Assembly (NCBI GenBank): GCA_035605035.1
Contig: DATNHI010000106.1
Location: forward strand, 849 to 64,848
DNA from: Verrucomicrobiia bacterium
GTDB taxonomy: Bacteria > Verrucomicrobiota > Verrucomicrobiia > Limisphaerales > UBA11358
Direction of reading: 5' to 3'
Length of the DNA stretch: 64,000 bases
In this document: piece by piece, positions 3,304 through 62,377 of the stretch
Layout: each line of letters starts with the position of its first letter
How positions within the stretch are numbered: the stretch's first letter is position 1
Notes under the pieces: model-generated
What the model saw: only the letters and a program-made list of their open reading frames with translations
Databases searched by the model: none
Told to the model about the DNA's origin: nothing
Program-made: the position numbers and the translations under genes

Positions 3304-4545
3304 TTACGCCCCGAATTTGTCGAACATCCGCGCATTGGCCTGCATCAGGCGGATGAGATACTTCGCCTCGAACACGCCCAGCGAGCCGAGGTTCGCGCCG
3401 GTTTCGGTGAAGCGTTCCAGCTTGTCCGTGCCGCTGAACGCCGAGTGCAACAGCACCGGTTGCGGATGCCACGAATGGCCCTTGACCGCCACCGGCGTCG
3501 AATGGTCGCCGGTGATGACCAGCACGTCGGGCTTTTTCCGCAGCAAAATCGGCAGCGCGGCGTCGAAATCCTGAATCGCATTCATTTTCGCCACGAAATT
3601 GCCGTCTTCGCCGTATTTGTCCGTGTATTTGTAATGGATGAAAAAGAAATCGAAATTGTCGTATTCCTTGAGGTAACGCTCGAACTGCTCGGTGATGGTC
3701 GCCGGGCCTTCAATCTTCTTCATGCCCACGAGTTGCGCCAGGCCTTTGTACATGGGATAAACCGCCAGCGCGGCGGCCCGCAGCTTGTAACGCTCCGCGA
3801 ACAGCGGGAGGTGTGGCTGGTGCGCGATGCCGCGCATGAGAAAACCGTTGGCCGGCTTTTCCCGCACGAGGAGGGGCAGCGCAGCCATGTAAAAACCCGT
3901 GATAAGCGCGGCCATTTTTTTCTGCCCGGCGTTGTTCTCGTCGCGCGGACGAACGGTGGGAATGGGAAAACCTTCGCGGTTCGGATCGGCGTCGGTCAGC
4001 GGCCCTTCGAGTCCGCTGCCGCGAAACACGACGACGAACCGGTGTTCCTTGCCGGCCTTGATGAGGATTTCGGTGTCGCCGAGTTGTTTTACTTCTGCCG
4101 AGAGCATTGCGCACAGTTTCTCGCACGTCTCCGTCGGGATGCGTCCGGCGCGGCGGTCGGTGACGATTGCCTTCTTGTCGAGCGTGCAGAAGTTTGCGCG
4201 GGCGCAAACGTCGCCGGGCTTGAGTTCCATACCCAGCCCCAGCGCCTCAATCACGCCGCGGCCGACCTGGAACTCCAGCGGATCGTAACCAAACAAGCCG
4301 AGATGCCCCGGCCCGCTGCCGGGTGTGATGCCGGGCGCGACGGGAATCATCCGGCCCTGCGCCGAATCCTTGCAGAGCTGGTCGAGGTTCGGCGTGGTGG
4401 CAGCTTCGAGCGGTGTCAGGTAATTTTGTTCCCGCGTGGCGAGATCACCGAGGCCGTCCAGCACGACCAGCGCGAGCTTGGCGTTGGTTTTCAGCGTCAG
4501 TTCGGAATAAAGCGCGTCCAGATTCATCCGCCCATTTTGCCGCAA
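3304..4545 (-). CDS. apgM: cofactor-independent phosphoglycerate mutase, archaeal/ApgM type
   Basis: KLALVVLDGLGD...PNLDQL...GITPGSGPGHLGLFGYDP...VLVITGDHSTP. Alternative start at 4527 (MNLDALY). Confidence 0.8.
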   Translation of the reverse strand: MRQNGRMNLDALYSELTLKTNAKLALVVLDGLGDLATREQNYLTPLEAATTPNLDQLCKDSAQGRMIPVAPGITPGSGPGHLGLFGYDPLEFQVGRGVIEALGLGMELKPGDVCARANFCTLDKKAIVTDRRAGRIPTETCEKLCAMLSAEVKQLGDTEILIKAGKEHRFVVVFRGSGLEGPLTDADPNREGFPIPTVRPRDENNAGQKKMAALITGFYMAALPLLVREKPANGFLMRGIAHQPHLPLFAERYKLRAAALAVYPMYKGLAQLVGMKKIEGPATITEQFERYLKEYDNFDFFFIHYKYTDKYGEDGNFVAKMNAIQDFDAALPILLRKKPDVLVITGDHSTPVAVKGHSWHPQPVLLHSAFSGTDKLERFTETGANLGSLGVFEAKYLIRLMQANARMFDKFGA

Positions 4546-4626: not shown

Positions 4627-5565
4627 GTGCTCACGAGTTCAGCGACCGAACAAACCACGCTGCGACGGAGACGGCTCAATTTCCTCCGCTGGTTGCCGGT
4701 CGCCGCGTCGCTGACCCTGCTGATCATGATCGCGATTATTTCCACCCGAACGATGTCGGATTTGAAGCAGGCAACCTATCGCCACCAGCACACGGTTCAG
4801 GAAATCCTCGCCGCGCATGCTTATGAAGACAATATCGTGGACATCCAGAACAACATGCGCGATTTCGTGACGATGGGCGATGCCGCGGCGCTCGCCGCGT
4901 GTCAGCGCTGCATCGTCCAGGAGCAGCAGCAGTTCGACCGGCTCGTCAACCTGACGCGCGACAACCCTGAACAGCAGCAGCGTTTGCAGGCCCTCTCCGT
5001 AGCAATGAAGGACCTGTTTGCCTACGACACGCGGTTGATTGACACTTACAAGCTACACGGCGCCGAGGCGGTGCTGCAAATCGAGCAAACGGGTGAAGGC
5101 CGGGCCGTCACCGGCCGCGCGCGTGACATTTTGAAGAAGTTCACCGGCGTGGAACAGGGATTGTTGGACGCGCGCGCCGCCATGGAACAGACGGATTACA
5201 ACAATACCGAGCGCTTGCTCATTGTTGGCAGCGTGCTGGTCGTGGCGCTGCTCGTGCTGGCTAATTTCGTGACCAGCCGCGAAATGGCCCGACGCCGGCG
5301 CGCGGAAATCGAACGCGAAAAACTCATCGCCGAGCTGCAGCGGACCCTGGCCGAGGTAAAAACCCTGTCCGGCCTTATCCCGATTTGCGCCTGGTGCAAG
5401 AACGTCCGCAACGACCAGGGCTACTGGCAAACCGTCGAGCAATACGTCCATTCGCGTTCCGACGCCAGCTTCTCGCACAGCATCTGCCCCGGTTGCCGGG
5501 AAAAATTCAAAGACGAAATTGCCAAAGGCCACCGGCCGGGCGAACCATCGCCGTCACAAAATTGA
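4627..5565 (+). CDS. CHASE3-like sensor protein with Cys-rich C-terminal module
   Basis: N-terminal TM helix, CHASE3-like periplasmic region (HTVQEILAAHAYEDNIVDIQNNMRDFVTMGD), second TM helix, coiled coil, then LIPICAWCKNVRNDQGYWQTVEQYVHSRSDASFSHSICPGCREKF. No kinase, GGDEF or other known output domain seen. Confidence 0.65.
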   Translation: MLTSSATEQTTLRRRRLNFLRWLPVAASLTLLIMIAIISTRTMSDLKQATYRHQHTVQEILAAHAYEDNIVDIQNNMRDFVTMGDAAALAACQRCIVQEQQQFDRLVNLTRDNPEQQQRLQALSVAMKDLFAYDTRLIDTYKLHGAEAVLQIEQTGEGRAVTGRARDILKKFTGVEQGLLDARAAMEQTDYNNTERLLIVGSVLVVALLVLANFVTSREMARRRRAEIEREKLIAELQRTLAEVKTLSGLIPICAWCKNVRNDQGYWQTVEQYVHSRSDASFSHSICPGCREKFKDEIAKGHRPGEPSPSQN

Positions 5566-6955: not shown

Positions 6956-8413
6956 TCACCGCTTCAACGCTGAAACTGCGACTTGCTTGCTGACTTTCGC
7001 GAGGCGTTTTTCCCATTCGCCCTTGTGCGCCAACGGGTCGGCGTCCGTGCCCCAGAGTTTCTTGACCATCTCCAATTGCGGCACGAACGGGCATTTGGCC
7101 TTGGGATTTTTGTAAATCTCCTCCATCTCGCGCAACGCGAACTGCGCGCCGGTCATCACCGCCGACGAGCCGAACCGTTCGTTGAGTTGGTGCGCCGCGT
7201 CGTCCAGCGCGCCCCAGCGTTCCGCGTCGGTTTTGCCCCAAAGCGTCGGCTGCGTGTCCAGCCGCGCCAGGTTCCAGAACCCGATGCGGATTTGCCGGAC
7301 CGGTTTGGCCTGGTCGCTCATGATCTTCCGGAAAATATTTTCCAGGACCGCGTTCATGACGGAATTTTGAAATTGTGGTTCGTGAAAACGGTGACCGCCG
7401 CTGACTTCGCTGAAATCGTTGAACCGGATCGTCAGGCCCAGCTCGCGCGCCTGCATTTGCTCGCGGCGCAACTGGCCGACCAGCCGCGTCGCCTCGCTCA
7501 ACGTAAACGTGAGCGCGCCCTCGTAATCCGGCTCGTCGTAAGGCAGCGTCGTGTTGCTGGAAATCGTCGTGCGGTCCTTCACCTGCAACAGCAACGGCTC
7601 GCTCCACAGGCCGTTGGCGAACAGCCAGAGTTGCGTGCCCCAGATGCCGAACTTTTTCCGGAGCAGGGTCGAAGGCAATTTCGCCACGTGCCCGAACGTC
7701 TGCGCGCCCAGCGCCGCCAACGCGCGCTGGCGGTTTTTGCCGATGCCGGAAAGCTCGCGCACGGAACGGTCCTTGAGAAATTCTTTTTCGTCGCCGGGTT
7801 TGATTTCGATGAACCCGGGCTTGGCGGCGTCCGTCGCCAGCTTGGCCAGCCGCGATGAATTGGCCAGACCGGCCGAGACCGGCAATTTTACTTCCCGCGA
7901 AATGCGTTCGCGGATTTCGCCCACGTATTTTTCCGGCGTCGTGTCGCGCCAGACGTGACGGTCCATCGTGGTGAAATCCAGGAAACCTTCGTCAATCGAG
8001 ATGGGAACCAGCGTGGGCGAATATTCCTCGAGGATGCGGAACATCTGCCGCGACAGCTCGCGGTAGTCGTCGTAGTGCGGTTTGCACAGGACGCCGCGCG
8101 GACACAGCCGCGCCGCCTCGAAACACGCCATGCCGGTCGTGATGCCGAATTTCTTGGCCGCGCGATTGGCGGCGATGACGATGCCGTCGCCGCGCCGTCC
8201 GCCGCCGACCCAGACCGGGCGGTCCCGCAATTTGGGATTGCGGGCAATCTCGCAACTGGCGAAGAAACTGTCGCCGTCCACGTGCAGGATGCGAATGGGT
8301 GTGCTCACAACAAGCGCGTTTCGTTGGAGTTCACGCTTCAGCGTGTCTTCATGCCCTAAACAACCTGAAGGTTGAACTCCAACTGTGCGTTGTTCAGGTT
8401 CGCCCAAAACCAT
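6956..8413 (-). CDS. dinB: Y-family DNA polymerase IV
   Basis: ILHVDGDSFFASCE...ISIDEGFLD are Y-family catalytic motifs. A GTG at 8308 (VSTPIRILHVD) is a plausible true start. C-terminal extension relative to typical DinB. Confidence 0.85.
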   Translation of the reverse strand: MVLGEPEQRTVGVQPSGCLGHEDTLKRELQRNALVVSTPIRILHVDGDSFFASCEIARNPKLRDRPVWVGGGRRGDGIVIAANRAAKKFGITTGMACFEAARLCPRGVLCKPHYDDYRELSRQMFRILEEYSPTLVPISIDEGFLDFTTMDRHVWRDTTPEKYVGEIRERISREVKLPVSAGLANSSRLAKLATDAAKPGFIEIKPGDEKEFLKDRSVRELSGIGKNRQRALAALGAQTFGHVAKLPSTLLRKKFGIWGTQLWLFANGLWSEPLLLQVKDRTTISSNTTLPYDEPDYEGALTFTLSEATRLVGQLRREQMQARELGLTIRFNDFSEVSGGHRFHEPQFQNSVMNAVLENIFRKIMSDQAKPVRQIRIGFWNLARLDTQPTLWGKTDAERWGALDDAAHQLNERFGSSAVMTGAQFALREMEEIYKNPKAKCPFVPQLEMVKKLWGTDADPLAHKGEWEKRLAKVSKQVAVSALKR

Positions 8414-11585: not shown

Positions 11586-11755
11586 GCCCGAAGTCCGAAT
11601 ACCGAAATCCGACCCGTCCTCCGTAGCAGCACTGCGGAGGGTGGAAAGAAATCCGAATTGCGAAATCCGATCAAGTGAGGCGAGCACTCACGAGCATTTC
11701 GGGCTTCGGGTTTCGGCCTTCTTTTGGAATTCGGATTTCGGGCTTCGGATTTATC
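11586..11755. repeat. composite heptad-periodic inverted repeat (atccgaa / ttcggat units) with a nested cctccgtagcag..ctgcggagg hairpin
   Basis: Left side cccgaagtccgaataccgaaatccga...atccgaattgcgaaatccga. Right side cttcgggtttcgg...ggaattcggatttcgggcttcggattt. Confidence 0.8.
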
Positions 11756-12787: not shown

Positions 12788-12965
12788 GGGTGGCAGGAAA
12801 TCCGAAATCCGAATGCCGAAATCCGAAAGAAATCCGAATACCGAATTCCAAAAAAGCGCGGCGCACAATCACTGGCATTCCGGGTTTCGGATTTCGGGCT
12901 TCTTTCGGGTTTCGGATTTCGAGCCTCGGATTTTGGGCATCGGGTTTCGGATTTTGAGTTCATGG
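12788..12965. repeat. heptad-periodic inverted repeat filling the cydA-cydB spacer
   Basis: aatccgaaatccgaatgccgaaatccgaaagaaatccgaataccgaa ... ggtttcggatttcgggcttctttcgggtttcggatttcgagcctcggattttgggcatcgggtttcggatttt. Confidence 0.85.
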
Positions 12966-14327
12966 TTATTCCCGTGTTGGCAAAGCGAGCTTGCCTGCCG
13001 GGGTCAGGTCAGCGTCGTCCGGTCCGTGCTGGATCTTGTCGTTGAGCAGATAAATGAACACCGCGAACAGCAGGAAATAAATGAACGTGAACAAAATCAG
13101 CGACGAGAGAACGGCACTTTTTGCCACGACGGCCGACAAACCCGCCGGCGTGCGCATCAGGCCATAGACAATCCATGGTTGGCGTCCGACTTCGGCGGCG
13201 AACCAACCGAGCTGGTTGGCGATTTGCGGTCCGAGCACGGAGAAAACGAGGATCCACAGCAGCCAGCGCCGTTCATGCAGCGAGCCGTGGCGGAAATACA
13301 AAAAGCCCAGTGCTGCAATCGCGATCATCGTGAAGCCGACGCCTACCATGCCGTGAAAAAACAGGAACGACGCTTCGACCGGCGGACGGTCTTCGGGCGC
13401 GAAGGCGTCCAGACCGGTTACCATCGTTTTGGTTTCAAAGCCGACGAGAAAACTCAACAGCCCCGGCCATTGCAGGCCAACGACCTTCTCCTGTTTTTCG
13501 TCCACATAACCCACGAGCGTCAGCGGTGCGTTGGAAGAAGTTTCATAGAGTCCTTCAAACGCGGCGAGTTTGGCCGGCTGATTTTTCGCCACGCTTCGGG
13601 CACTGCTGTCACCGCTGACCAGTTGCAGCAGCGAGGCGACCAGCGCGACGGTCAAACCGACCCGTAGCGATGCCCGCGCAAAATCCAAGTTTCGTTTCTT
13701 CAGAAGATACCACGCGCTGACGCTCACCACGAGGAACGCGCCCGCCTGCCACGCCCCGCACAACACGTGAAACAGCCGGTCCACCATTGATGGATTGAAC
13801 ACCAGTTGCCAGAAATCCTTGACTTCCGCGCGCGCCACGCCGTTGTGAGTCACGATTTGGTAACCGGCGGGCGTCTGCATCCACGAGTTGGCGACGACGA
13901 TCCAGACCGCGCTGAAATGCGCGCCCAGACAGACCATGCACGTGGAAAAGAAATGCAGCTTGCGACTGACTTTGTCCCAACCAAACAACAACACCGCGAG
14001 AAAACCGGATTCGAGGAAGAACGCGAAGATCCCTTCCGCTGCCAGCGCGCTGCCGAACACGTCGCCGACAAAACGCGAATACGTCGCCCAGTTTGTGCCG
14101 AACTCGAATTCCATCACGATGCCGGTCGCCACGCCGATGGCGAAGGTGAGGGCGAAGACCTTCGTCCAGAATCGTGCCATCTGGTGATAGACCGGATTTT
14201 TGGTTTTGAGCCACAATCCCTCCATGCAGAGGAGCAGAATGCCAAGGCCGATGCTTAACGGCGGGTAGAGATAATGAAACGCGACCGTGGCCCCGAACTG
14301 GATGCGGGCAAGTGTCAATACATCCAT
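12966..14327 (-). CDS. cydA: cytochrome bd ubiquinol oxidase subunit I
   Basis: [28 protein letters not shown]...[12 protein letters not shown] are CydA hallmarks. Confidence 0.9.
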
Positions 14328-34185: not shown

Positions 34186-34322
34186 AAGCTCCAAGCACCA
34201 AGCGCCAATCTCCAGAGAAGCGCCAAATTCCGAACTCCAGGAAGTCTGACGGCAACGAGCGCGTTGTTTGGAATTTGAAGTTTGGAATTTCTCTGGTGCT
34301 TGGTGCTTGAATGTTGGAGCTT
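34186..34322. repeat. heptad-periodic inverted repeat in the truB-ribF spacer
   Basis: agctccaagcaccaagcgccaatctccagagaa ... ttctctggtgcttggtgcttgaatgttggagct, followed by a T-run. Confidence 0.8.
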
Positions 34323-37419: not shown

Positions 37420-37516
37420 CATTTACGATTTACGATTTTTGATTTACGATTTGCCGGTGCGCGCAAGTTGGCAAGGAGCGCGTAAATCGTAAATCGTGAA
37501 TCGTATATCGTAAATC
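37420..37516. repeat. heptad-periodic inverted repeat (atttacg units) downstream of rpoD, probable terminator-like structure
   Basis: atttacgatttacgatttttgatttacgattt ... gcgtaaatcgtaaatcgtgaatcgtatatcgtaaat. Confidence 0.8.
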
Positions 37517-46803: not shown

Positions 46804-46894
46804 AATTTTGTCAACGGCCGCGTCAATGCACATGCCGCAATTGATTTTCACGTTGGGTGAACTTGATGACCGCGGACTTCGCGGTTCAGAGGCT

Positions 46895-47045
46895 CGCCCT
46901 TCCAAATGCCTGCGAGATTAGCTGTCGGGCTTGGCCTTGAAAGTGGCCCGGTGATTCCGTTGCCGGAACCCCTGCGCCCCGTCCTCAACTTTGAGGAATT
47001 TGGGTCTCCCGCATCGGCTTGCAGGAAGGCAAACCGATTTAGGCT
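46895..47045 (-). promoter_or_regulatory. ydaO/yuaA-type (c-di-AMP) riboswitch candidate upstream of kdpFABC
   Basis: Minus-strand RNA AAAUCGGUUUGCC..GAUGCGGGAGACCCAAAUUCC...GACGGGGCGCAGGGGUUCCGG...GCCCGACAGCUAAUCUCGCAGGC. Matches remembered conserved blocks GCGGGGGACCCA, GGGGUGAAUCC and CCCGUCAGCUAACCUCGUAAGCG. Confidence 0.65.
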
Positions 47046-47110
47046 GCAACGGCCAAAGTTAATCACAGCTTCCAAAGTTTGTCAACTCCGCCGCAAACGG
47101 GCTGTTTTTA

Positions 47111-48688
47111 TTGAAAAAACCTTTGCCAACCGGCGCGCCAAAGCGTCTTATTTCCCAACAGCTTATGGCTCGAATCCGGATTTTGCTGGCGTTTGTCTGC
47201 TGGATGCCCGCGATGCTTTTCGCGGAGGAAGAAACGTACTGGCCGGTGGCCATTGTCCCGCCGCAACCGGCGCGCGAATTCCGCGGCGCCTGGCTCGTGA
47301 CCGTCGCCAACAAAGACTGGCCGTCCAAACCCGGCCTGCCCGTCGCGGCGCAAAAGGCCGAACTGGCCGAATTGTTGGACCGCGCGGCGCAGTTGAAATT
47401 GAACGCCATCATTTTTCAGGTGCGCCCGTCCTGCGACGCGATGTATGCCTCGGCGATTGAGCCGTGGTCGGAATATCTCACCGGCACGATGGGCAAGGCG
47501 CCGGAACCGTTTTACGACCCGCTCGCCTTTGCCATCGAAGAGGCACACCGGCGCGGACTTGAACTGCACGCCTGGTTCAACCCGTTCCGCGCGTTGCATG
47601 AGCAGGCCAGGTCGCCCGTCGCGCCGAATCATGTTTCGCGGACGCACCCCGAATGGGTCCGCCACTACGGCAGCCAACTGTGGCTCGACCCCGGGGAACC
47701 GTCCGTGCGGGTTTACGTTTTGGGCGTGATCATGGACGTGGTGCGGCGTTATGACGTGGATGGTGTGCAATTGGATGATTATTTTTATCCCTACCCGGAA
47801 AAGGACGCCGCGGGGCGCGAATTGGGATTTCCCGACGACGCGAGCTGGCGGAACTACGGGCTGTCGAGCCGATTGAGCCGGGACGACTGGCGGCGCGCCA
47901 ACATCAATGCGTTTGTTCAGGGCGTTTACCAGAACATCAAGGCGGCCAAACCGTGGGTGAAATTCGGCGTCAGCCCGTTTGGCATCTGGCGGCCGATGAA
48001 TCCGCTGCAAATCCGGGGCATGGACGCCTACGCGAAACTCTACGCCGACTCGCGCCGGTGGTTGGCGAACGGCTGGCTCGATTATTTTTCGCCGCAACTG
48101 TACTGGTCCATGGATACGCCACAACAGAGCTTTCCCGTGCTCCTCAACTGGTGGGCCCAACAAAATGTTCAAGGCCGGCACCTCTGGCCGGGACTCGACG
48201 CTGCCAATGTCGGGGAAAAGTGGGGACCGGACGAAATCGCGCGGCAAATTGCTGCCACGCGCCAGCAACCCGGCGCCGGCGGGGAAATCTTTTATCACCT
48301 GCGCAACCTGACAGACACTGCCGGGCTGGCCAACGTCGTGCGCGCCGCTTATCCGCAGCCGGCGCTCGTGCCGGCCTCGCCGTGGCTGGAGGCCATGCTG
48401 CCGGGCAAACCCAGGCTCACCATTGCGGAAAACAGCCGCACCAGTTTGAGACTCCAATGGCAAACGGCGGATAGCCGGGCCTCGCTGTGGATTTTGCAGT
48501 TTCGCACCAACCAGGTCTGGACCACGGAAATCCTGCCCGCCGCCCGGACGAATTGGGCGTTTGCCAAGCCCGCGCCGGATTTGATCGCCATCAGTGCGGT
48601 GGACCGGGCGGACGGCGTCAGTACACCCGCTGCGCTCAGGAAATATCGGCTCGTTCCCGTCGGGAAAGGGACCTACATCTGGCGATAG
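47111..48688 (+). CDS. glycosyl-hydrolase-like family 10 (GHL10/YngK-like) secreted protein
   Basis: EFRGAWLVTVANKDWPS...LNAIIFQVRPSCDAMY...LELHAWFNPF...VDGVQLDDYFYP. Likely start 47165. Confidence 0.75.
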   Translation: MKKPLPTGAPKRLISQQLMARIRILLAFVCWMPAMLFAEEETYWPVAIVPPQPAREFRGAWLVTVANKDWPSKPGLPVAAQKAELAELLDRAAQLKLNAIIFQVRPSCDAMYASAIEPWSEYLTGTMGKAPEPFYDPLAFAIEEAHRRGLELHAWFNPFRALHEQARSPVAPNHVSRTHPEWVRHYGSQLWLDPGEPSVRVYVLGVIMDVVRRYDVDGVQLDDYFYPYPEKDAAGRELGFPDDASWRNYGLSSRLSRDDWRRANINAFVQGVYQNIKAAKPWVKFGVSPFGIWRPMNPLQIRGMDAYAKLYADSRRWLANGWLDYFSPQLYWSMDTPQQSFPVLLNWWAQQNVQGRHLWPGLDAANVGEKWGPDEIARQIAATRQQPGAGGEIFYHLRNLTDTAGLANVVRAAYPQPALVPASPWLEAMLPGKPRLTIAENSRTSLRLQWQTADSRASLWILQFRTNQVWTTEILPAARTNWAFAKPAPDLIAISAVDRADGVSTPAALRKYRLVPVGKGTYIWR

Positions 48689-48693
48689 CGGTT

Positions 48694-49126
48694 TTGGAAG
48701 GGCTGTAAGCCGAATTCTGTCTTCACCCTTGCGGATGGAGAGAACCATTTGTCTCAGCAGCCGATACCCGGAACCCGTCCCGCGTTGGCGGGACCGGAGC
48801 GGGCCGCTCCGGAGTTCCCTATTTGGCCTTGCACCCGATGGGGTTTTCCGTGCCGCGTCGCTTGCGCTTCGCGCGGTGGTCTCTTACACCACCTTTTCAC
48901 CCTTGCCCCTCTGAAATTTCAAATTTCAAATTTGAGATTCCAAAGCGGCGGTCTGTTTTCTGTGGCACTGTCCGTCGGGACGGCTCGCGCCGCCGCCGCC
49001 CGCGTGTATCCTCTGAAATCTCAAATCCGAAATTTGAAATTCCAAAAGGTTACGCGGCATCGCGCCCTTTGGTGTTCGGACTTTCCTCTGCCGGCTCGCG
49101 CCGGCGGCGATTCTCCGCCCTTCCAA
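48694..49126 (-). ncRNA. rnpB: RNase P RNA, bacterial type A
   Basis: Minus-strand GGAAGGGCGGAGAAUCGCC...CAGAGGAAAGUCCGAACACCAAAGGGCGCGAUGCCGCGUAAC...CAGUGCCACAGAAAACAGACCGCC...AAGGGUGAAAAGGUGGUGUAAGAGACCACC...GCAAGGCCAAAUAGGGAAC...GACAGAAUUCGGCUUACAGCCCUUCC. P1 closes with GGAAGGGC/GCCCUUCC. Confidence 0.9.
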
Positions 49127-49206
49127 AACCATTGGGAAAATAGCCGATGGGAGCAAAAATCTCAAGGGGTCAATTCCGGTTCGGGCCGCGTCCCTGCGAC
49201 TTCGCA

Positions 49207-55712: not shown

Positions 55713-55798
55713 ATCTGGGGTTTGGGGTCTTGGGTCTGGGGTCCGGGTGCTGAAATCGGTCAGCCCCGGAACCGAGACGCCAGAACCCAGGCCCAAAC
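55713..55798. repeat. heptad-periodic inverted repeat between the toxin and antitoxin genes
   Basis: tctggggtttggggtcttgggtctggggtccggg ... ccccggaaccgagacgccagaacccaggcccaaac. Confidence 0.75.
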
Positions 55799-56079: not shown

Positions 56080-56871
56080 GTGAACGCCATGAAGACGAAA
56101 TCTCGAATGTCGAATGCCCAATGCCGGACTGAAAAGCGAGGCCGTCGCGATTTTGTCATTCGTCATTCGACATTCGACATTCGTGCCTTCACCCTCATCG
56201 AACTGCTCACCGTCATGGCCATCATCGCCGCGCTGGCGGCGTTCCTGTTCCCCGTGGTGGGGCGCATCAAGCGGCAGCAATACATCAAGAACGCGACGGC
56301 GGAAATGGAACAGTTGGAGACGGCCCTTGACCGCTACAAGGCCGCCTACGGCTTCTACCCGCCGGACAATCCATGCAACCCCTTGGTCAACCAGCTCTAC
56401 TTTGAACTGTTGGGAACGACCAATTTGGCTGTTCCTCCTGCCGCGCCGTTCTATCAATCGCTTGACGACCCCACCGTGCAACTCAAGCAATCCGACTTTG
56501 CCAATGCTTTCGGCACCATGGCCGGGAACAATTGCGTGAGCGGTTTTATGAATTGCAGCAAGCCCGGTTCGAGCGAGGACACGCCCAAGGCCCAAAACTT
56601 CCTGCCCAATTTGAGACCCAACCAGACCACCCTCTACAGTAACAACCTTGTCGGGTTAAAATTGATCATCACTTCCGTCAAAGGGCCGGACGTGACGTAC
56701 AAGCCGCTGGGCCTCGGCGCGCCCGACATCAATCCCTGGCGCTACAATTCGTCGAGCCCGACGAACAATCCCGGCGCCTATGACCTGTGGGTCCAACTGG
56801 TAATCAGCGGGAAAACGAATCTCATCTGCAATTGGAACAAGCAAGTGCAATTGAACAGCCCGCTGCCCTGA
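56080..56871 (+). CDS. GspG-like pseudopilin (prepilin-type N-terminal domain)
   Basis: AFTLIELLTVMAIIAALAAFLFPV then AEMEQLETALDRYKAAYGFYPPDN. True start uncertain (GTG 56080, ATG 56089 or ATG 56107); all lie in or before the repeat. Confidence 0.75.
   Translation: MNAMKTKSRMSNAQCRTEKRGRRDFVIRHSTFDIRAFTLIELLTVMAIIAALAAFLFPVVGRIKRQQYIKNATAEMEQLETALDRYKAAYGFYPPDNPCNPLVNQLYFELLGTTNLAVPPAAPFYQSLDDPTVQLKQSDFANAFGTMAGNNCVSGFMNCSKPGSSEDTPKAQNFLPNLRPNQTTLYSNNLVGLKLIITSVKGPDVTYKPLGLGAPDINPWRYNSSSPTNNPGAYDLWVQLVISGKTNLICNWNKQVQLNSPLP
56098..56185. repeat. heptad-periodic inverted repeat (cgaatgt / acattcg units) covering the pseudopilin leader region
   Basis: aaatctcgaatgtcgaatgcccaatgccgg ... ttgtcattcgtcattcgacattcgacattcgtg. 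Confidence 0.8.
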
Positions 56872-59354: not shown

Positions 59355-59360
59355 TCCCCA

Positions 59361-59454
59361 AAAGCTAAAGGCTAAATGCTAAAGTCTAAAATACAGCTTG
59401 TGCGCCGGGCGCGGGAAAGAAGTTCAGCCTTTAGCCTTCAGCCTTTGGCCTTGG
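59361..59454. repeat. heptad-periodic inverted repeat (gctaaag / ctttagc units) at a pseudopilin 5' end
   Basis: aagctaaaggctaaatgctaaagtctaaaa ... gttcagcctttagccttcagcctttggccttgg. Confidence 0.8.
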
Positions 59455-60293
59455 TTTGCTCCGCCTTCACGCTCATCGAGCTGCTGGTGGTGATTTCCAT
59501 CCTCGGCATCCTCGCCGCGTTGACCGTGCCGGCGTTCAAAAATTTCGGCAAATCAAGCGTCAACCTCAGCGCCTCGCGGCAGATGCTCGACGCCGTGGCG
59601 CGCGCGCGCCAGCTCGCCATGAGCCAGCGCACCACCGTTTATATGGTCTTCGTCCCGACGAATTTCTGGAACGGCAACTCGGGGAGCTGGCCCAACAGTT
59701 GGTGGAGCGGTCCGCCCGGCCCCGGCCTGACGCCCGCGCAAAAAACCGCCGCCACCAATCTGTGCAGCGACCAATTGAGCGGCTACAACTTCATGGCCTA
59801 CGGCGCGATGGGCGATCAGCCCGGCCAGCATGCCTGGCATTATCTCGGATCGTGGCAGACGCTGCCCGACGGCGCGTTCATCGCCCAGTGGAAATTTGGT
59901 CCAAGTTATTTGACCAATTACGTGATTGACCTGGTCAATGGCGCCACCTACCCCGTCGCCGGGTTTCAGCGGACGACCGGTTTTATTCCGTTCCCGACCC
60001 AGGATTCGCCCATCGCGACCACCGTAACGAACCTGCCTTACCTCGCGTTCAATTATCTCGGCCAGTTGACCACCGAAGAATTGACGCCCGCGCCGCTGAC
60101 GCGGGACGCCTATGTCCCGCTGGCGCGCGGCAGCGTGCTGCCCGCCGTCAATCCCAACAAGGCGTTGCAATTCGGCAATCCCGACGTTGCGGAAATGCCG
60201 CCCGGCAACAGCACCAACATTTCCTACAACCTCGTTCACATCAACTGGCTGACGGGCCGCGCGGTCCTGGAATATCACAAAATGGGGCCATGA
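59376..60293 (+). CDS. minor pseudopilin (GspH/FimT-like)
   Basis: SAFTLIELLVVISILGILAALTVPAF...ASRQMLDAVARARQLAMSQRTTVYMVF. Start uncertain (ATG 59376 inside the repeat, or TTG 59451). Confidence 0.7.
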   Translation: MLKSKIQLVRRARERSSAFSLQPLALVCSAFTLIELLVVISILGILAALTVPAFKNFGKSSVNLSASRQMLDAVARARQLAMSQRTTVYMVFVPTNFWNGNSGSWPNSWWSGPPGPGLTPAQKTAATNLCSDQLSGYNFMAYGAMGDQPGQHAWHYLGSWQTLPDGAFIAQWKFGPSYLTNYVIDLVNGATYPVAGFQRTTGFIPFPTQDSPIATTVTNLPYLAFNYLGQLTTEELTPAPLTRDAYVPLARGSVLPAVNPNKALQFGNPDVAEMPPGNSTNISYNLVHINWLTGRAVLEYHKMGP

Positions 60294-61225
60294 AAATTTC
60301 AAGCGAGTTCAGAGTCCAGAGTCCAGAGTCCCGAGTCAACCGACTGCGGGCTATGGACTGTGGACTGCCGACTGTGGACTGTGGACTGCGGACTGGCAAC
60401 TGTGAGTCCGCCTTCACCATGGTCGAGATCGCCATCAGCCTGGCGATCATCGGCATTGCGCTCGTCGCCATCATCGGCGTGTTGCCCATCGGCTTGCGCA
60501 CGCAACGCGACAACCGCGAGGAAACCGTCATCAACCAGGACGCCACCGTGTTCATCGAAGCCATCCGCAACGGCCAGTTCGGACTGAATGATTTGACCAA
60601 TTACGTCTATGCCATCACGAATTATTGGGTTTGGTACAACCCCGATGGCACCCCCAACCGGAACGGAGTGAACGGTTACACCTATTCGGCTGCCTCGGCC
60701 ACGCCGCCGTATCCGACGGCCCCGTTCCCCATCAGTAGCGGGACGAACATCATCGGGCTTTTAAGCACACCGGAATACGTTTTTTTAGACAAAAACGGAA
60801 ACGGAAACTTTGTGCCGACGAACAACCTGTTCAGCGGCGGCATCAGCAACCACGTCGTCGCTTATGTCCGCTCCTTGAGCGGGCCGGCGGAGGAGAAACC
60901 GCCGCAGAACAACGACATCGTGGTGGGCGATGCGTTTGCCTACCGCATCCTGTGCGTGAACGCGCCGCTGGCGATGGACACGAATATGTTCACCCTCACT
61001 GCCTTTCAACCCAACCAGCCGCGGTACAACGCGGCGTTGACGGCCAGCCTGCATGAACTGCGGCTGACGTTTCTCTGGCCGCAACTGCCCAATGGCGCGT
61101 TGGGCGCCGGCCACCTGACCTTCCGCACGATGGTCGCCGGACAGGTGTCACAGATTTTCACCAATAACCAGTGGCTGTATTTTTACCAGCCGAATTCCTT
61201 TACCAACGTCGTCGCCGCGCAATGA
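60290..61225 (+). CDS. minor pseudopilin
   Basis: SAFTMVEIAISLAIIGIALVAIIGVLP. Start uncertain (ATG 60290, ATG 60353 or an in-frame GTG); all lie inside the repeat. Confidence 0.65.
   Translation: MKISSEFRVQSPESRVNRLRAMDCGLPTVDCGLRTGNCESAFTMVEIAISLAIIGIALVAIIGVLPIGLRTQRDNREETVINQDATVFIEAIRNGQFGLNDLTNYVYAITNYWVWYNPDGTPNRNGVNGYTYSAASATPPYPTAPFPISSGTNIIGLLSTPEYVFLDKNGNGNFVPTNNLFSGGISNHVVAYVRSLSGPAEEKPPQNNDIVVGDAFAYRILCVNAPLAMDTNMFTLTAFQPNQPRYNAALTASLHELRLTFLWPQLPNGALGAGHLTFRTMVAGQVSQIFTNNQWLYFYQPNSFTNVVAAQ
60305..60396. repeat. heptad-periodic inverted repeat (agtccag / tgtggac units) at a pseudopilin 5' end
   Basis: gagttcagagtccagagtccagagtcccgagtc ... ctatggactgtggactgccgactgtggactgtggactgcggactgg. 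Confidence 0.8.
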
Positions 61226-62283: not shown

Positions 62284-62377
62284 AATTTACGATTTACGAT
62301 TTACGATTTACGATTGGGGAAAAATCGGCAAAGGCCGCTTCCTTCAATCATCAATCATCAATCATCAATCGTAAATC
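62284..62377. repeat. heptad-periodic repeat (atttacg x4 ... aatcatc x3, aatcgtaaatc)
   Basis: aatttacgatttacgatttacgatttacgatt ... caatcatcaatcatcaatcatcaatcgtaaatc. Confidence 0.8.

Follow-up and report, generated by a model that had tools for sequence, protein, structure and literature searches.

Why should two peripheral helices of one conserved ribozyme, the RNA of RNase P, end in hairpins that are built of the same AU-rich heptamer? The question arises from a 64-kb stretch of Verrucomicrobiota DNA (hereafter the window, meaning the whole stretch that was analysed), in which a sequence-only reading had noticed two near-identical heptad-repeat hairpins inside the rnpB gene, had likened them to the intergenic elements and had offered two explanations: either the repeat class had colonised variable helices, or the helices had been duplicated.

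The gene that carries them was matched by Rfam search to RF00010 (RNaseP_bact_a) at 224.3 bits (E 1.7e-71) over positions 1-367 of the 367-position model, well above the gathering score of 100 bits and over the full model. Type A membership was judged on the conserved P4 strands together with helices P13, P14 and P18; the P4 strands (GAGGAAAGUCCG ... ACAGAAUUCGGCUUA) and the P13/P14 region were aligned with high posterior probability and show almost no variation among relatives. On one side of the gene lies a GHL10-family gene in convergent orientation (47111-48688), and on the other a type IV pilus cluster (PilB, PilT, PilB, PilC) in divergent orientation; no tRNA genes were found within the 64-kb window. 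The GHL10 protein is 100% identical to one of a Verrucomicrobiae MAG, an exact look-up of the adjacent PilB gave no recorded match, and loci with related rnpBs belong to MAGs that carry the labels Verrucomicrobiae, Limisphaerales and Verrucomicrobia subdivision 3. The parts of the gene that matter for the question are the following.

48690-49126, minus strand: rnpB, type A bacterial RNase P RNA of 437 nt (Rfam RF00010; P1 pairs 48690-48703 with 49117-49130).
49050-49057, minus strand: 5' strand of P8 (CCGCGU), then the two unpaired A's of the L8 motif UAAC (covariance-model alignment, MFE folds).
49010-49049, minus strand: P8x, a 40-nt AU-rich hairpin, CCUUUUGGAAUUUCAAAUUUCGGAUUUGAGAUUUCAGAGG, inserted in L8 (44-nt P8-loop insertion; 18-bp MFE fold; TRF period 7).
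49000-49009, minus strand: 3' side of the P8 internal loop (AUAC) and 3' strand of P8 (ACGCGG) (covariance-model alignment, MFE folds).
48974-48999, minus strand: P9, a GC-rich hairpin with a GCGA tetraloop, not built of heptads (covariance-model alignment and relatives).
48905-48949, minus strand: P12, with an AU-rich, 38-nt apex hairpin at 48908-48945, CUUUGGAAUCUCAAAUUUGAAAUUUGAAAUUUCAGAGG (covariance-model alignment; TRF period 7).
48875-48893, minus strand: P13, GGUGGUGUAAGAGACCACC (alignment with relatives).

Both hairpins were present as described, the quoted strings GGAAUUUCAAAU-UUCGG-AUUUGAGAUUUC and GGAAUCUCAAAU-UUGAA-AUUUGAAAUUUC being found in the 49010-49049 and 48908-48945 hairpins, respectively. 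Four 7-nt repeats of the degenerate heptad S-ARAUYU make up each hairpin, in the register GGAAUUU, CAAAUUU, CGGAUUU, GAGAUUU for P8x and GGAAUCU, CAAAUUU, GAAAUUU, GAAAUUU for the P12 apex, and TRF reported period-7 arrays at 48914-48944 and 49012-49040 (4.4 and 4.1 copies). Because S-ARAUYU is a self-complementary hexamer plus one base, a single heptad array folds back as its own hairpin; both hairpins have 17-18 bp, with dG of -27.9 and -22.4 kcal/mol when flanks are included, and the P12 apex fold contains one C.A mismatch. The two align as an ungapped direct repeat of 37 nt at 86% identity, which extends over the non-heptad ends CUUUGG and CAGAGG, and direct and inverted alignments are about equally good (a 'flip' of the hairpin was considered). 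With 32% GC in a genome of 58% GC, the cassette is AU-rich in a GC-rich background; it is either recent or actively maintained.

A chance origin of the pair is excluded. Arrays of at least three S-ARATYT heptads occurred twice in the window, both times in rnpB, and not once in 50 window shuffles; a covariance model of the hairpin (R1) scored 68.4 bits at the P12 apex and 55.8 bits at P8x, and its best score elsewhere in the 64 kb was 12 bits (E ~1). Alignment to the RF00010 covariance model put 48908-48945 at the apex of P12, in agreement with the helix proposed earlier for 48905-48945, but the segment at 49010-49050, which had been assigned to P9, proved to be a 44-nt insertion in the loop of P8, the true P9 lying at 48974-48999. 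This P9 is of the same type as in the sister lineages L123 and L247; it also has 18 nt in common with the window's P3 at 89% identity. The comparison with RF00010 and with relatives, which had been suggested as the check, places both segments in variable peripheral helices outside the conserved core, and relatives differ there, so the original observation stands.

The hairpin in L8 is here named P8x. An extra helix at this site is present in every one of the Verrucomicrobiota rnpBs that were compared (28 of 28), whereas about 90 rnpBs of other phyla all lack it, and all 24 Verrucomicrobiota sequences that were folded form P8 (CCGCGU/ACGCGG), an AA/AUAC internal loop and an extension hairpin. 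In about 87 of 92 rnpBs from other phyla L8 closes one nucleotide after xAAC; the window has no such closed small loop (UAAC plus 1 nt, docking on P4), the 44-nt insertion having opened it, and the AA of UAAC is kept as an internal loop. The GUAAC of L8 is invariant among Verrucomicrobiae relatives, and AUACACGCGG, in the 49000-49009 region, is conserved in relatives. The open L8 is a lineage-specific variation that leaves type A membership unaffected. We know of no cyanobacterial counterpart of P8x, and a literature search on helix P8 of Verrucomicrobia RNase P and on heptamer repeats in rnpB found nothing beyond the cyanobacterial precedent discussed below. In type A RNAs the AAC of L8 makes the L8-P4 interdomain contact (PMC8457005). 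Since both A's of L8 stay unpaired in the window, this contact can plausibly persist, with P8x pointing outward.

Comparison with relatives showed that the tips of these helices are hypervariable on a conserved core. A scan of genome contigs with the pattern GAGGAAAGTCCGAACNCCANAGGGC matched many phyla, with at least 19 Verrucomicrobiota and at least about 14 Pyrinomonadaceae rnpBs among the matches listed. The order KdpA, c-di-AMP riboswitch, GHL10, rnpB, PilB is kept in L020, L123, L245 and L247/248/250, whose GHL10 and PilB proteins are 80-83% and 89-95% identical to those of the window, respectively. These nearest relatives lack the AU cassette at both P8x and P12 and carry unrelated, GC-rich hairpins there on nearly the same rnpB core. 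Their P8x measures 19 nt in L123, 18 nt in L245 and L247 and 36 nt, GC-rich, in L020, and their P12 apex measures 20-64 nt, with a sequence unrelated to that of the window. In 23 tabulated Verrucomicrobiota sequences the length of P8x varies between 11 and 93 nt and that of the P12 apex between 12 and 90 nt, while the cores that were compared are about 87-94% identical. Because the closest relatives have unrelated hairpins at both sites, the AU hairpins of the window represent a derived, swappable state. A 19-nt P8x (YCAAGYCNGUUYGRUUGRG), common to L123, L073, L094, L107, L111 and L117, looks ancestral because it recurs in different parts of the core tree. Alignment with relatives revealed neither a remnant of an older hairpin nor a target-site duplication at the window's tips.

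Across about 1.4 kb two further loci, L140 and L187, differ by just 12 mismatches and are otherwise 100% identical; the mismatches all fall within rnpB nt 317-364, which is one peripheral hairpin, and the two versions of this segment correspond to alleles of other species. This difference is direct evidence that peripheral helices are exchanged in short patches within rnpB, the conserved core providing the homology. The window's P13 stem variant, 8 nt from P12, is common to L140, L242 and L073, with L123, L245 and L247 having GGUGCGG..CGCACC instead; this difference of two base pairs gives a weak hint that the boundary of a recombination patch may lie here. Other sequences repeat different modules over several helices. 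The 700-nt rnpB of L092 has four palindromes of about 94 nt, at P3, P8x, P12 and P19, with the common ends CCCSGCCCUUYUUNAA and UUNAARAAGGGCSGGG and no further copy in 8 kb, and in the rnpB of L109 P3 and P12 share a 30-nt repeat.

The AU-heptad cassette itself was also found beyond the window. A metagenome scan with the hairpin pattern gave at least 120 matches, of which about half of those listed were unrelated AT-rich palindromes. Among the matches listed were three more Verrucomicrobiae rnpBs (L140, L187 and L242), which have heptad hairpins on both P8x and P12. The GHL10 of L140/L187 is 64% identical to that of the window, farther away than that of the cassette-free relatives, and the rnpB core of L242 is closest to that of the cassette-free L107 (94%). 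Because L140 is the more distant and the L242 core is nearest to L107, the state in which both tips are AU heptads appears to occur in at least three non-sister Verrucomicrobiae lineages, as judged from a short-core neighbour-joining tree and flanking-protein identities. The P12 hairpins of the window, L140 and L242 are 92-95% identical (window to L140, 95%; window to L242, 92%), and those of L140 and L242 differ by one U-A to G-C compensatory change that keeps the pairing. Within one genome, P8x and P12 are 85% identical in the window, 74% in L140 and 69% in L242. Arithmetic from the consensus gives about 79% identity between any two arrays of the degenerate heptad, so the near-identity of the window's hairpins is largely a property of the class. 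A loop-loop (kissing) contact between P8x and P12 was considered and rejected, the loops being complementary only in L140 (UGA / UCA) and not in the window or L242.

Heptad hairpins were also found outside Verrucomicrobiota and outside rnpB. In Pyrinomonadaceae/Blastocatellia rnpBs (L031, L093, L043, L057, L029 and L017) they sit on P3, P9, P12, P13, P15-17 and P19; five or six helices carry one in Pyrinomonadaceae rnpB, where they make up 21-25% of the RNA in L093 and L031, and in the rnpB of L206 four helices do. Five contigs have an 89-92% identical hairpin about 70 nt past the 3' end of an unlinked 16S rRNA gene, and the window's P12 hairpin is 92% identical to these 16S-trailer hairpins. 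The one contig of the five whose taxon was checked (L213) is Terriglobia, by the source names of close homologues of one protein.

Our preferred explanation, held tentatively and with somewhat less than even confidence, is that P8x and P12 are tolerated, fast-turnover expansion sites, over which an AU-heptad cassette has spread by slippage, template switching and short-patch recombination. Heptad arrays would arise and change length through DNA-level slippage and through template switching in quasi-palindromes, and short-patch homologous recombination would move the cassette into and between rnpB alleles, with the conserved core as flanking homology. Copying between two tips of the same rnpB may add to the spread. 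The cassette would be tolerated because both sites are hypervariable, presumably solvent-exposed tips whose functional bases, at the roots, are kept, and it would serve as a replaceable expansion segment with no catalytic role. The hypervariable tips, the cassette-free nearest relatives, the exchange between L140 and L187, the compensatory change, the enrichment of period-7 arrays in the window (described below) and the other multi-helix modules all favour this explanation. A single recombination tract from P8x to P12 is ruled out: the intervening P9 has the form typical of the local clade, and one tract cannot therefore have delivered both hairpins. Weighing against the explanation, the cassette is restricted to rnpB in the loci examined, and in three lineages the occupancy of the two helices is all-or-none, which goes beyond pure neutrality and hints at selection or targeting; its low GC content in a GC-rich genome counts against the explanation as well.

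If selection is responsible, the hairpin may be a functional module: a portable S-ARAUYU hairpin placed on every permissive tip of stable RNAs, where it would dock an RNA-binding protein or an RNase (for example of the RNase III type) or would aid folding or stability. We consider this explanation unlikely, although several observations fit it. The hairpin is confined to rnpB in the window, in L140, L187 and L242 and in the six Pyrinomonadaceae/Blastocatellia loci, with none in about 0.8 Mb of flanks, and among the matches listed both P8x and P12 are occupied in 3 of the 3 Verrucomicrobiae lineages that have it. The five or six decorated helices of Pyrinomonadaceae, the 89-92% identical hairpins about 70 nt after 16S in the five contigs (Terriglobia for the one checked), the compensatory change that preserves pairing and the persistence of an AU-rich composition in GC-rich genomes point the same way. 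A precedent for protein-binding modules in P12 exists in archaea, in the form of L7Ae K-turns (PMC4245976 and PMC5499556). However, the nearest relatives do without the hairpin at either site, and the module cannot therefore be essential; identical arrays lie scattered through intergenic and 5'-UTR regions in other high-GC metagenome contigs, so the heptad class is not specific to stable RNAs. No candidate partner protein came to light, and the metagenome loci were picked by the hairpin pattern itself. A bolder form of the proposal, which we regard as distinctly unlikely, is that a portable stable-RNA module moves between lineages and even phyla as a docking or processing signal, for instance for a shared RNA-binding protein or a cut of the RNase III type, such that some soil bacteria would have a decorated or fragmented RNase P RNA.

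Colonisation by a genome-wide mobile or dispersed palindromic repeat (MITE-, REP- or STRR-like), which would have entered both helix tips independently, corresponds to the first of the two explanations offered by the sequence-only reading, and is improbable. Its attraction is that period-7 arrays abound in the window (18 were observed, and Markov simulations gave 2.4 on average), mostly with an inverted layout and in intergenic or 5' regions, and that one degenerate array, at 34265-34295, has heptads similar to those of rnpB. The likeness that had been drawn between the rnpB hairpins and these intergenic elements holds for the 7-nt period and the inverted layout but fails for the heptamers themselves, since the intergenic arrays have their own GC-richer, non-palindromic units (GAAATCC, ATTTACG, AAGCACC, AAAGGCT and GAGTCCA); the array at 34265-34295 is the only one that resembles the rnpB heptad class. 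No third copy of the heptad class was found in the 64-kb window by heptad scan or by R1 covariance-model search run without filters, and R1 searched over 129 further loci (about 0.8-0.9 Mb, from 120 species and close relatives) gave no match outside an rnpB. The ancestral hairpins were wholly replaced rather than split, and the further copies, GTAG/CGTC tag and target-site duplication characteristic of REP and MITE elements were all lacking in the window. Dispersal of one heptamer family, as in STRR-type repeats, was likewise not seen within the 64 kb available, a result that is provisional. In favour of a mobile repeat, S-ARATYT arrays are dispersed in other high-GC contigs, including Acidobacteriota ones, in intergenic or 5'-UTR positions that are often immediately upstream of start codons, with five arrays within 14.6 kb in L126; because of this dispersal, there are organisms in which the heptad class can act as a repeat of the whole genome. 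When the heptad-array contigs were searched permissively against Rfam, the search returned only sub-threshold matches to plant and animal miRNA precursors and no described bacterial RNA family. A genome-wide STRR family of cyanobacteria also occurs in P12 (Vioque 1997).

The second explanation offered at the outset, that the tip of one helix gave rise to that of the other by copying inside the window's own rnpB, is quite improbable. The 86% ungapped direct repeat of 37 nt does include the non-heptad ends CUUUGG and CAGAGG, a third copy is absent nearby, and helix-to-helix repeats within the gene are also seen in L092, L109 and Pyrinomonadaceae rnpBs. Against this, the window's P12 is closer to the P12 of L140 (95%), to the P12 of L242 (92%) and to the 16S-trailer hairpins (92%) than to its own P8x (85%), the identity of P8x and P12 within one genome falls to just 74% in L140 and 69% in L242, and about 79% is expected for any two arrays of the degenerate heptad.

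That the hairpins are an assembly artefact or a chimera of the metagenome-assembled contig is highly improbable: contigs of the relatives L122, L244, L246 and L249 do terminate in or beside rnpB, from which the region is judged hard to assemble, but the separately assembled JGI contig L121 has an identical rnpB, the same two-hairpin architecture occurs in L140, L187 and L242 from other samples, and the RNA is a full-length RF00010 match.

Among known systems, the closest comparison is with cyanobacteria. STRRs are known as genome-wide families. In heterocyst-forming cyanobacteria, STRR heptanucleotide repeats were described within P12 of rnpB (Vioque 1997, Nucleic Acids Res 25:3471, cited in PMC2858038). 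In both cases tandem 7-nt units lengthen the variable P12 of an ordinary type A RNA in a genome rich in heptamer arrays, and the window adds a second array in P8x to the tandem heptanucleotide units and P12 location that it has in common with STRRs. Unlike the STRR case, that of the window lies in Verrucomicrobiota, with parallels in Acidobacteriota; its unit is a self-complementary AU-rich hexamer plus one base, such that one array makes a whole hairpin; and a pair of helices is involved together, of which one is an L8 insertion specific to the lineage. The heptad is also not found elsewhere in the 64 kb, and its recurrence is polyphyletic and crosses phyla.

Intervening sequences (IVSs) of 23S rRNA offer a second comparison. 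Known from helices 25 and 45 of Salmonella, Leptospira, Campylobacter and other bacteria, they measure some 100 nt or more, and RNase III cuts them out, leaving a fragmented rRNA. As with IVSs, the extended hairpins of rnpB replace the variable tip of a helix in an essential stable RNA, are sporadic among close relatives and have a distribution that points to lateral exchange. In contrast, the window's hairpins are of about 38 nt with 17-18 bp.

Dispersed and structural elements resemble the cassette in part. REP elements are small, extragenic palindromic dispersed repeats with a GTAG/CGTC tag (PMC3733652). The window's hairpins are palindromic and of the same 20-40 nt size range but, unlike REP elements, they have no GTAG/CGTC tag and no dispersed copies in the window, lie inside a structural RNA gene and show an internal 7-nt periodicity. 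TAACTGA and other heptamer direct repeats of Beggiatoaceae, Cyanobacteria and Bacteroidetes stand mostly just before start codons and are patchily distributed across phyla (PMC4679880). The S-ARATYT arrays of the Acidobacteriota-type contigs are similar in their position upstream of start codons and their patchiness across phyla, but they consist of another heptamer, and TAACTGA-type repeats are not reported inside rnpB. Extra structure on peripheral helices of the S domain is likewise known from the P9-P12 pseudoknot of Deinococcus radiodurans RNase P RNA (PMC8457005) and from the L7Ae-bound K-turns in archaeal P12 (PMC4245976 and PMC5499556). Those structures are lineage-conserved and have a demonstrated role in folding or protein binding, whereas the window's hairpins are absent from its nearest relatives and, on our reading of the folds, the P8x and P12 loops are not consistently complementary across lineages.

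Overall, the locus indicates that the peripheral helix tips of a conserved ribozyme, RNase P RNA, behave as interchangeable cassettes. It extends the precedent of STRRs in P12 to new phyla and a new helix, and it documents a Verrucomicrobiota-specific helix in L8, the loop that normally docks on P4. In practical terms, such inserts lower covariance-model scores, and metagenome assemblies appear to break at rnpB. Ultimately, if the hairpin is a selected docking or processing module, it would be an accessory element of a kind new to bacterial RNase P.

The heptad hairpins built from the degenerate S-ARAUYU unit also occur on the RNase P RNAs of Acidobacteriota, where in Pyrinomonadaceae/Blastocatellia they are carried on P3, P9, P12, P13, P15-17 and P19:

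L031, 439-1023: Pyrinomonadaceae/Blastocatellia rnpB with heptad hairpins
L093, 151-743: Pyrinomonadaceae/Blastocatellia rnpB with heptad hairpins
L043, L057, L029 and L017: further such rnpBs

The RNase P RNAs of L031 and L093 are 585-593 nt long, and, among the matches listed, other Pyrinomonadaceae loci have short P9 and P12 regions.

One module on several helices was also observed in an rnpB of approximately 700 nt from a related Verrucomicrobiota MAG (REEB211; L092 1500-2199). It contains four palindromic modules of approximately 94 nt each, at P3, P8x (the extra helix inserted in loop L8), P12 and P19, with the common ends CCCSGCCCTTYTTNAA ... TTNAARAAGGGCSGGG. All eight module half-sites lay within rnpB and none was found elsewhere across the 8 kb locus. 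The Rfam model scored this gene at only 147 bits and misplaced P1-P3. The rnpB region of L109 (Solibacteraceae) holds a 30-nt direct repeat of 90% identity (CCGCCCGCCCTCGCTCGCGGCTCTTCGAGC) which, judged by offsets from the P4 motif, seems to connect one arm of P3 to one arm of a long P12; L109 is a further rnpB in which helices share a repeated module. Within the window rnpB, the P9 (48981-48998) and P3 (49092-49109) hairpins are 89% identical over an 18-nt stretch that in each case surrounds a GCGA tetraloop (CGGCTCGCGCCGCCGCCG in P9, CGGCTCGCGCCGGCGGCG in P3), a similarity that could be due to chance in GC-rich sequence.

Two Verrucomicrobiae loci with heptad hairpins on P8x and P12 differed at 12 positions (L140 721-1165 vs L187 985-1429), all clustered at rnpB nt 317-364, the P15-17 hairpin, and outside this segment the contigs were 100% identical across approximately 1.4 kb. 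The cluster is a short recombination patch inside rnpB. Because the contigs of four close relatives (L122, L244, L246 and L249) end within rnpB or at most approximately 250 nt from it, assembly breaks at this gene are suggested, arising from strain heterogeneity or variable-helix repeats. The neighbouring kdpA is preceded by a c-di-AMP riboswitch, a known and ordinary association, in the window and likewise in L020, L123 and L140:

44816-46615, minus strand: kdpA
46892-47055, minus strand: c-di-AMP riboswitch (47 bits against a gathering score of 38)

Beyond rnpB, the same heptad hairpin was located approximately 70 nt past the 3' end of 16S rRNA in at least five contigs (L172, L198, L200, L213 and L232), the only one tested for taxon, L213, belonging to Terriglobia. 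Neither tRNA nor 23S follows the 16S rRNA gene in these five; the trailer holds the heptad hairpin and more period-7 sequence, then a GC hairpin with a U-run after it that looks like a terminator, with four additional repeat units at this place in L172. A high-GC metagenome contig, L126, carries intergenic S-ARATYT arrays at 3523-3557, 5271-5346, 7732-7766 and 13140-13174, at least three of which appear to lie directly upstream of minus-strand start codons, and also GTAG-bearing palindromic repeats (TAAGTAGCGCAGGCTTCAGCCTGTGG).

The window itself is strongly enriched in period-7 arrays, with 18 TRF rows compared to a simulated mean of 2.4 and maximum of 7 (n = 20 simulations):

11696-11752, 12797-12954, 34186-34309: period-7 tandem arrays
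37421-37516, 55714-55747, 56097-56184: period-7 tandem arrays
59360-59452, 60305-60404, 62285-62370: period-7 tandem arrays

The hairpin layout (heptamer)n-spacer-(reverse-complement heptamer)n is seen in most of these arrays, at intergenic or 5' positions, and the heptamer differs from array to array. In three prepilin-like genes, the heptad inverted arrays fall within the leader-coding 5' ends:

56080-56240, plus strand: prepilin-like gene, 5' end
59376-59530, plus strand: prepilin-like gene, 5' end
60290-60450, plus strand: prepilin-like gene, 5' end

Their leaders are unusually long (27-42 aa) ahead of an AFTLIELL or AFTMVEI motif, and the N_methyl motif was detected for two of the three. 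Given this placement within the leader-coding sequence, a hairpin formed in the mRNA would overlie the start region.
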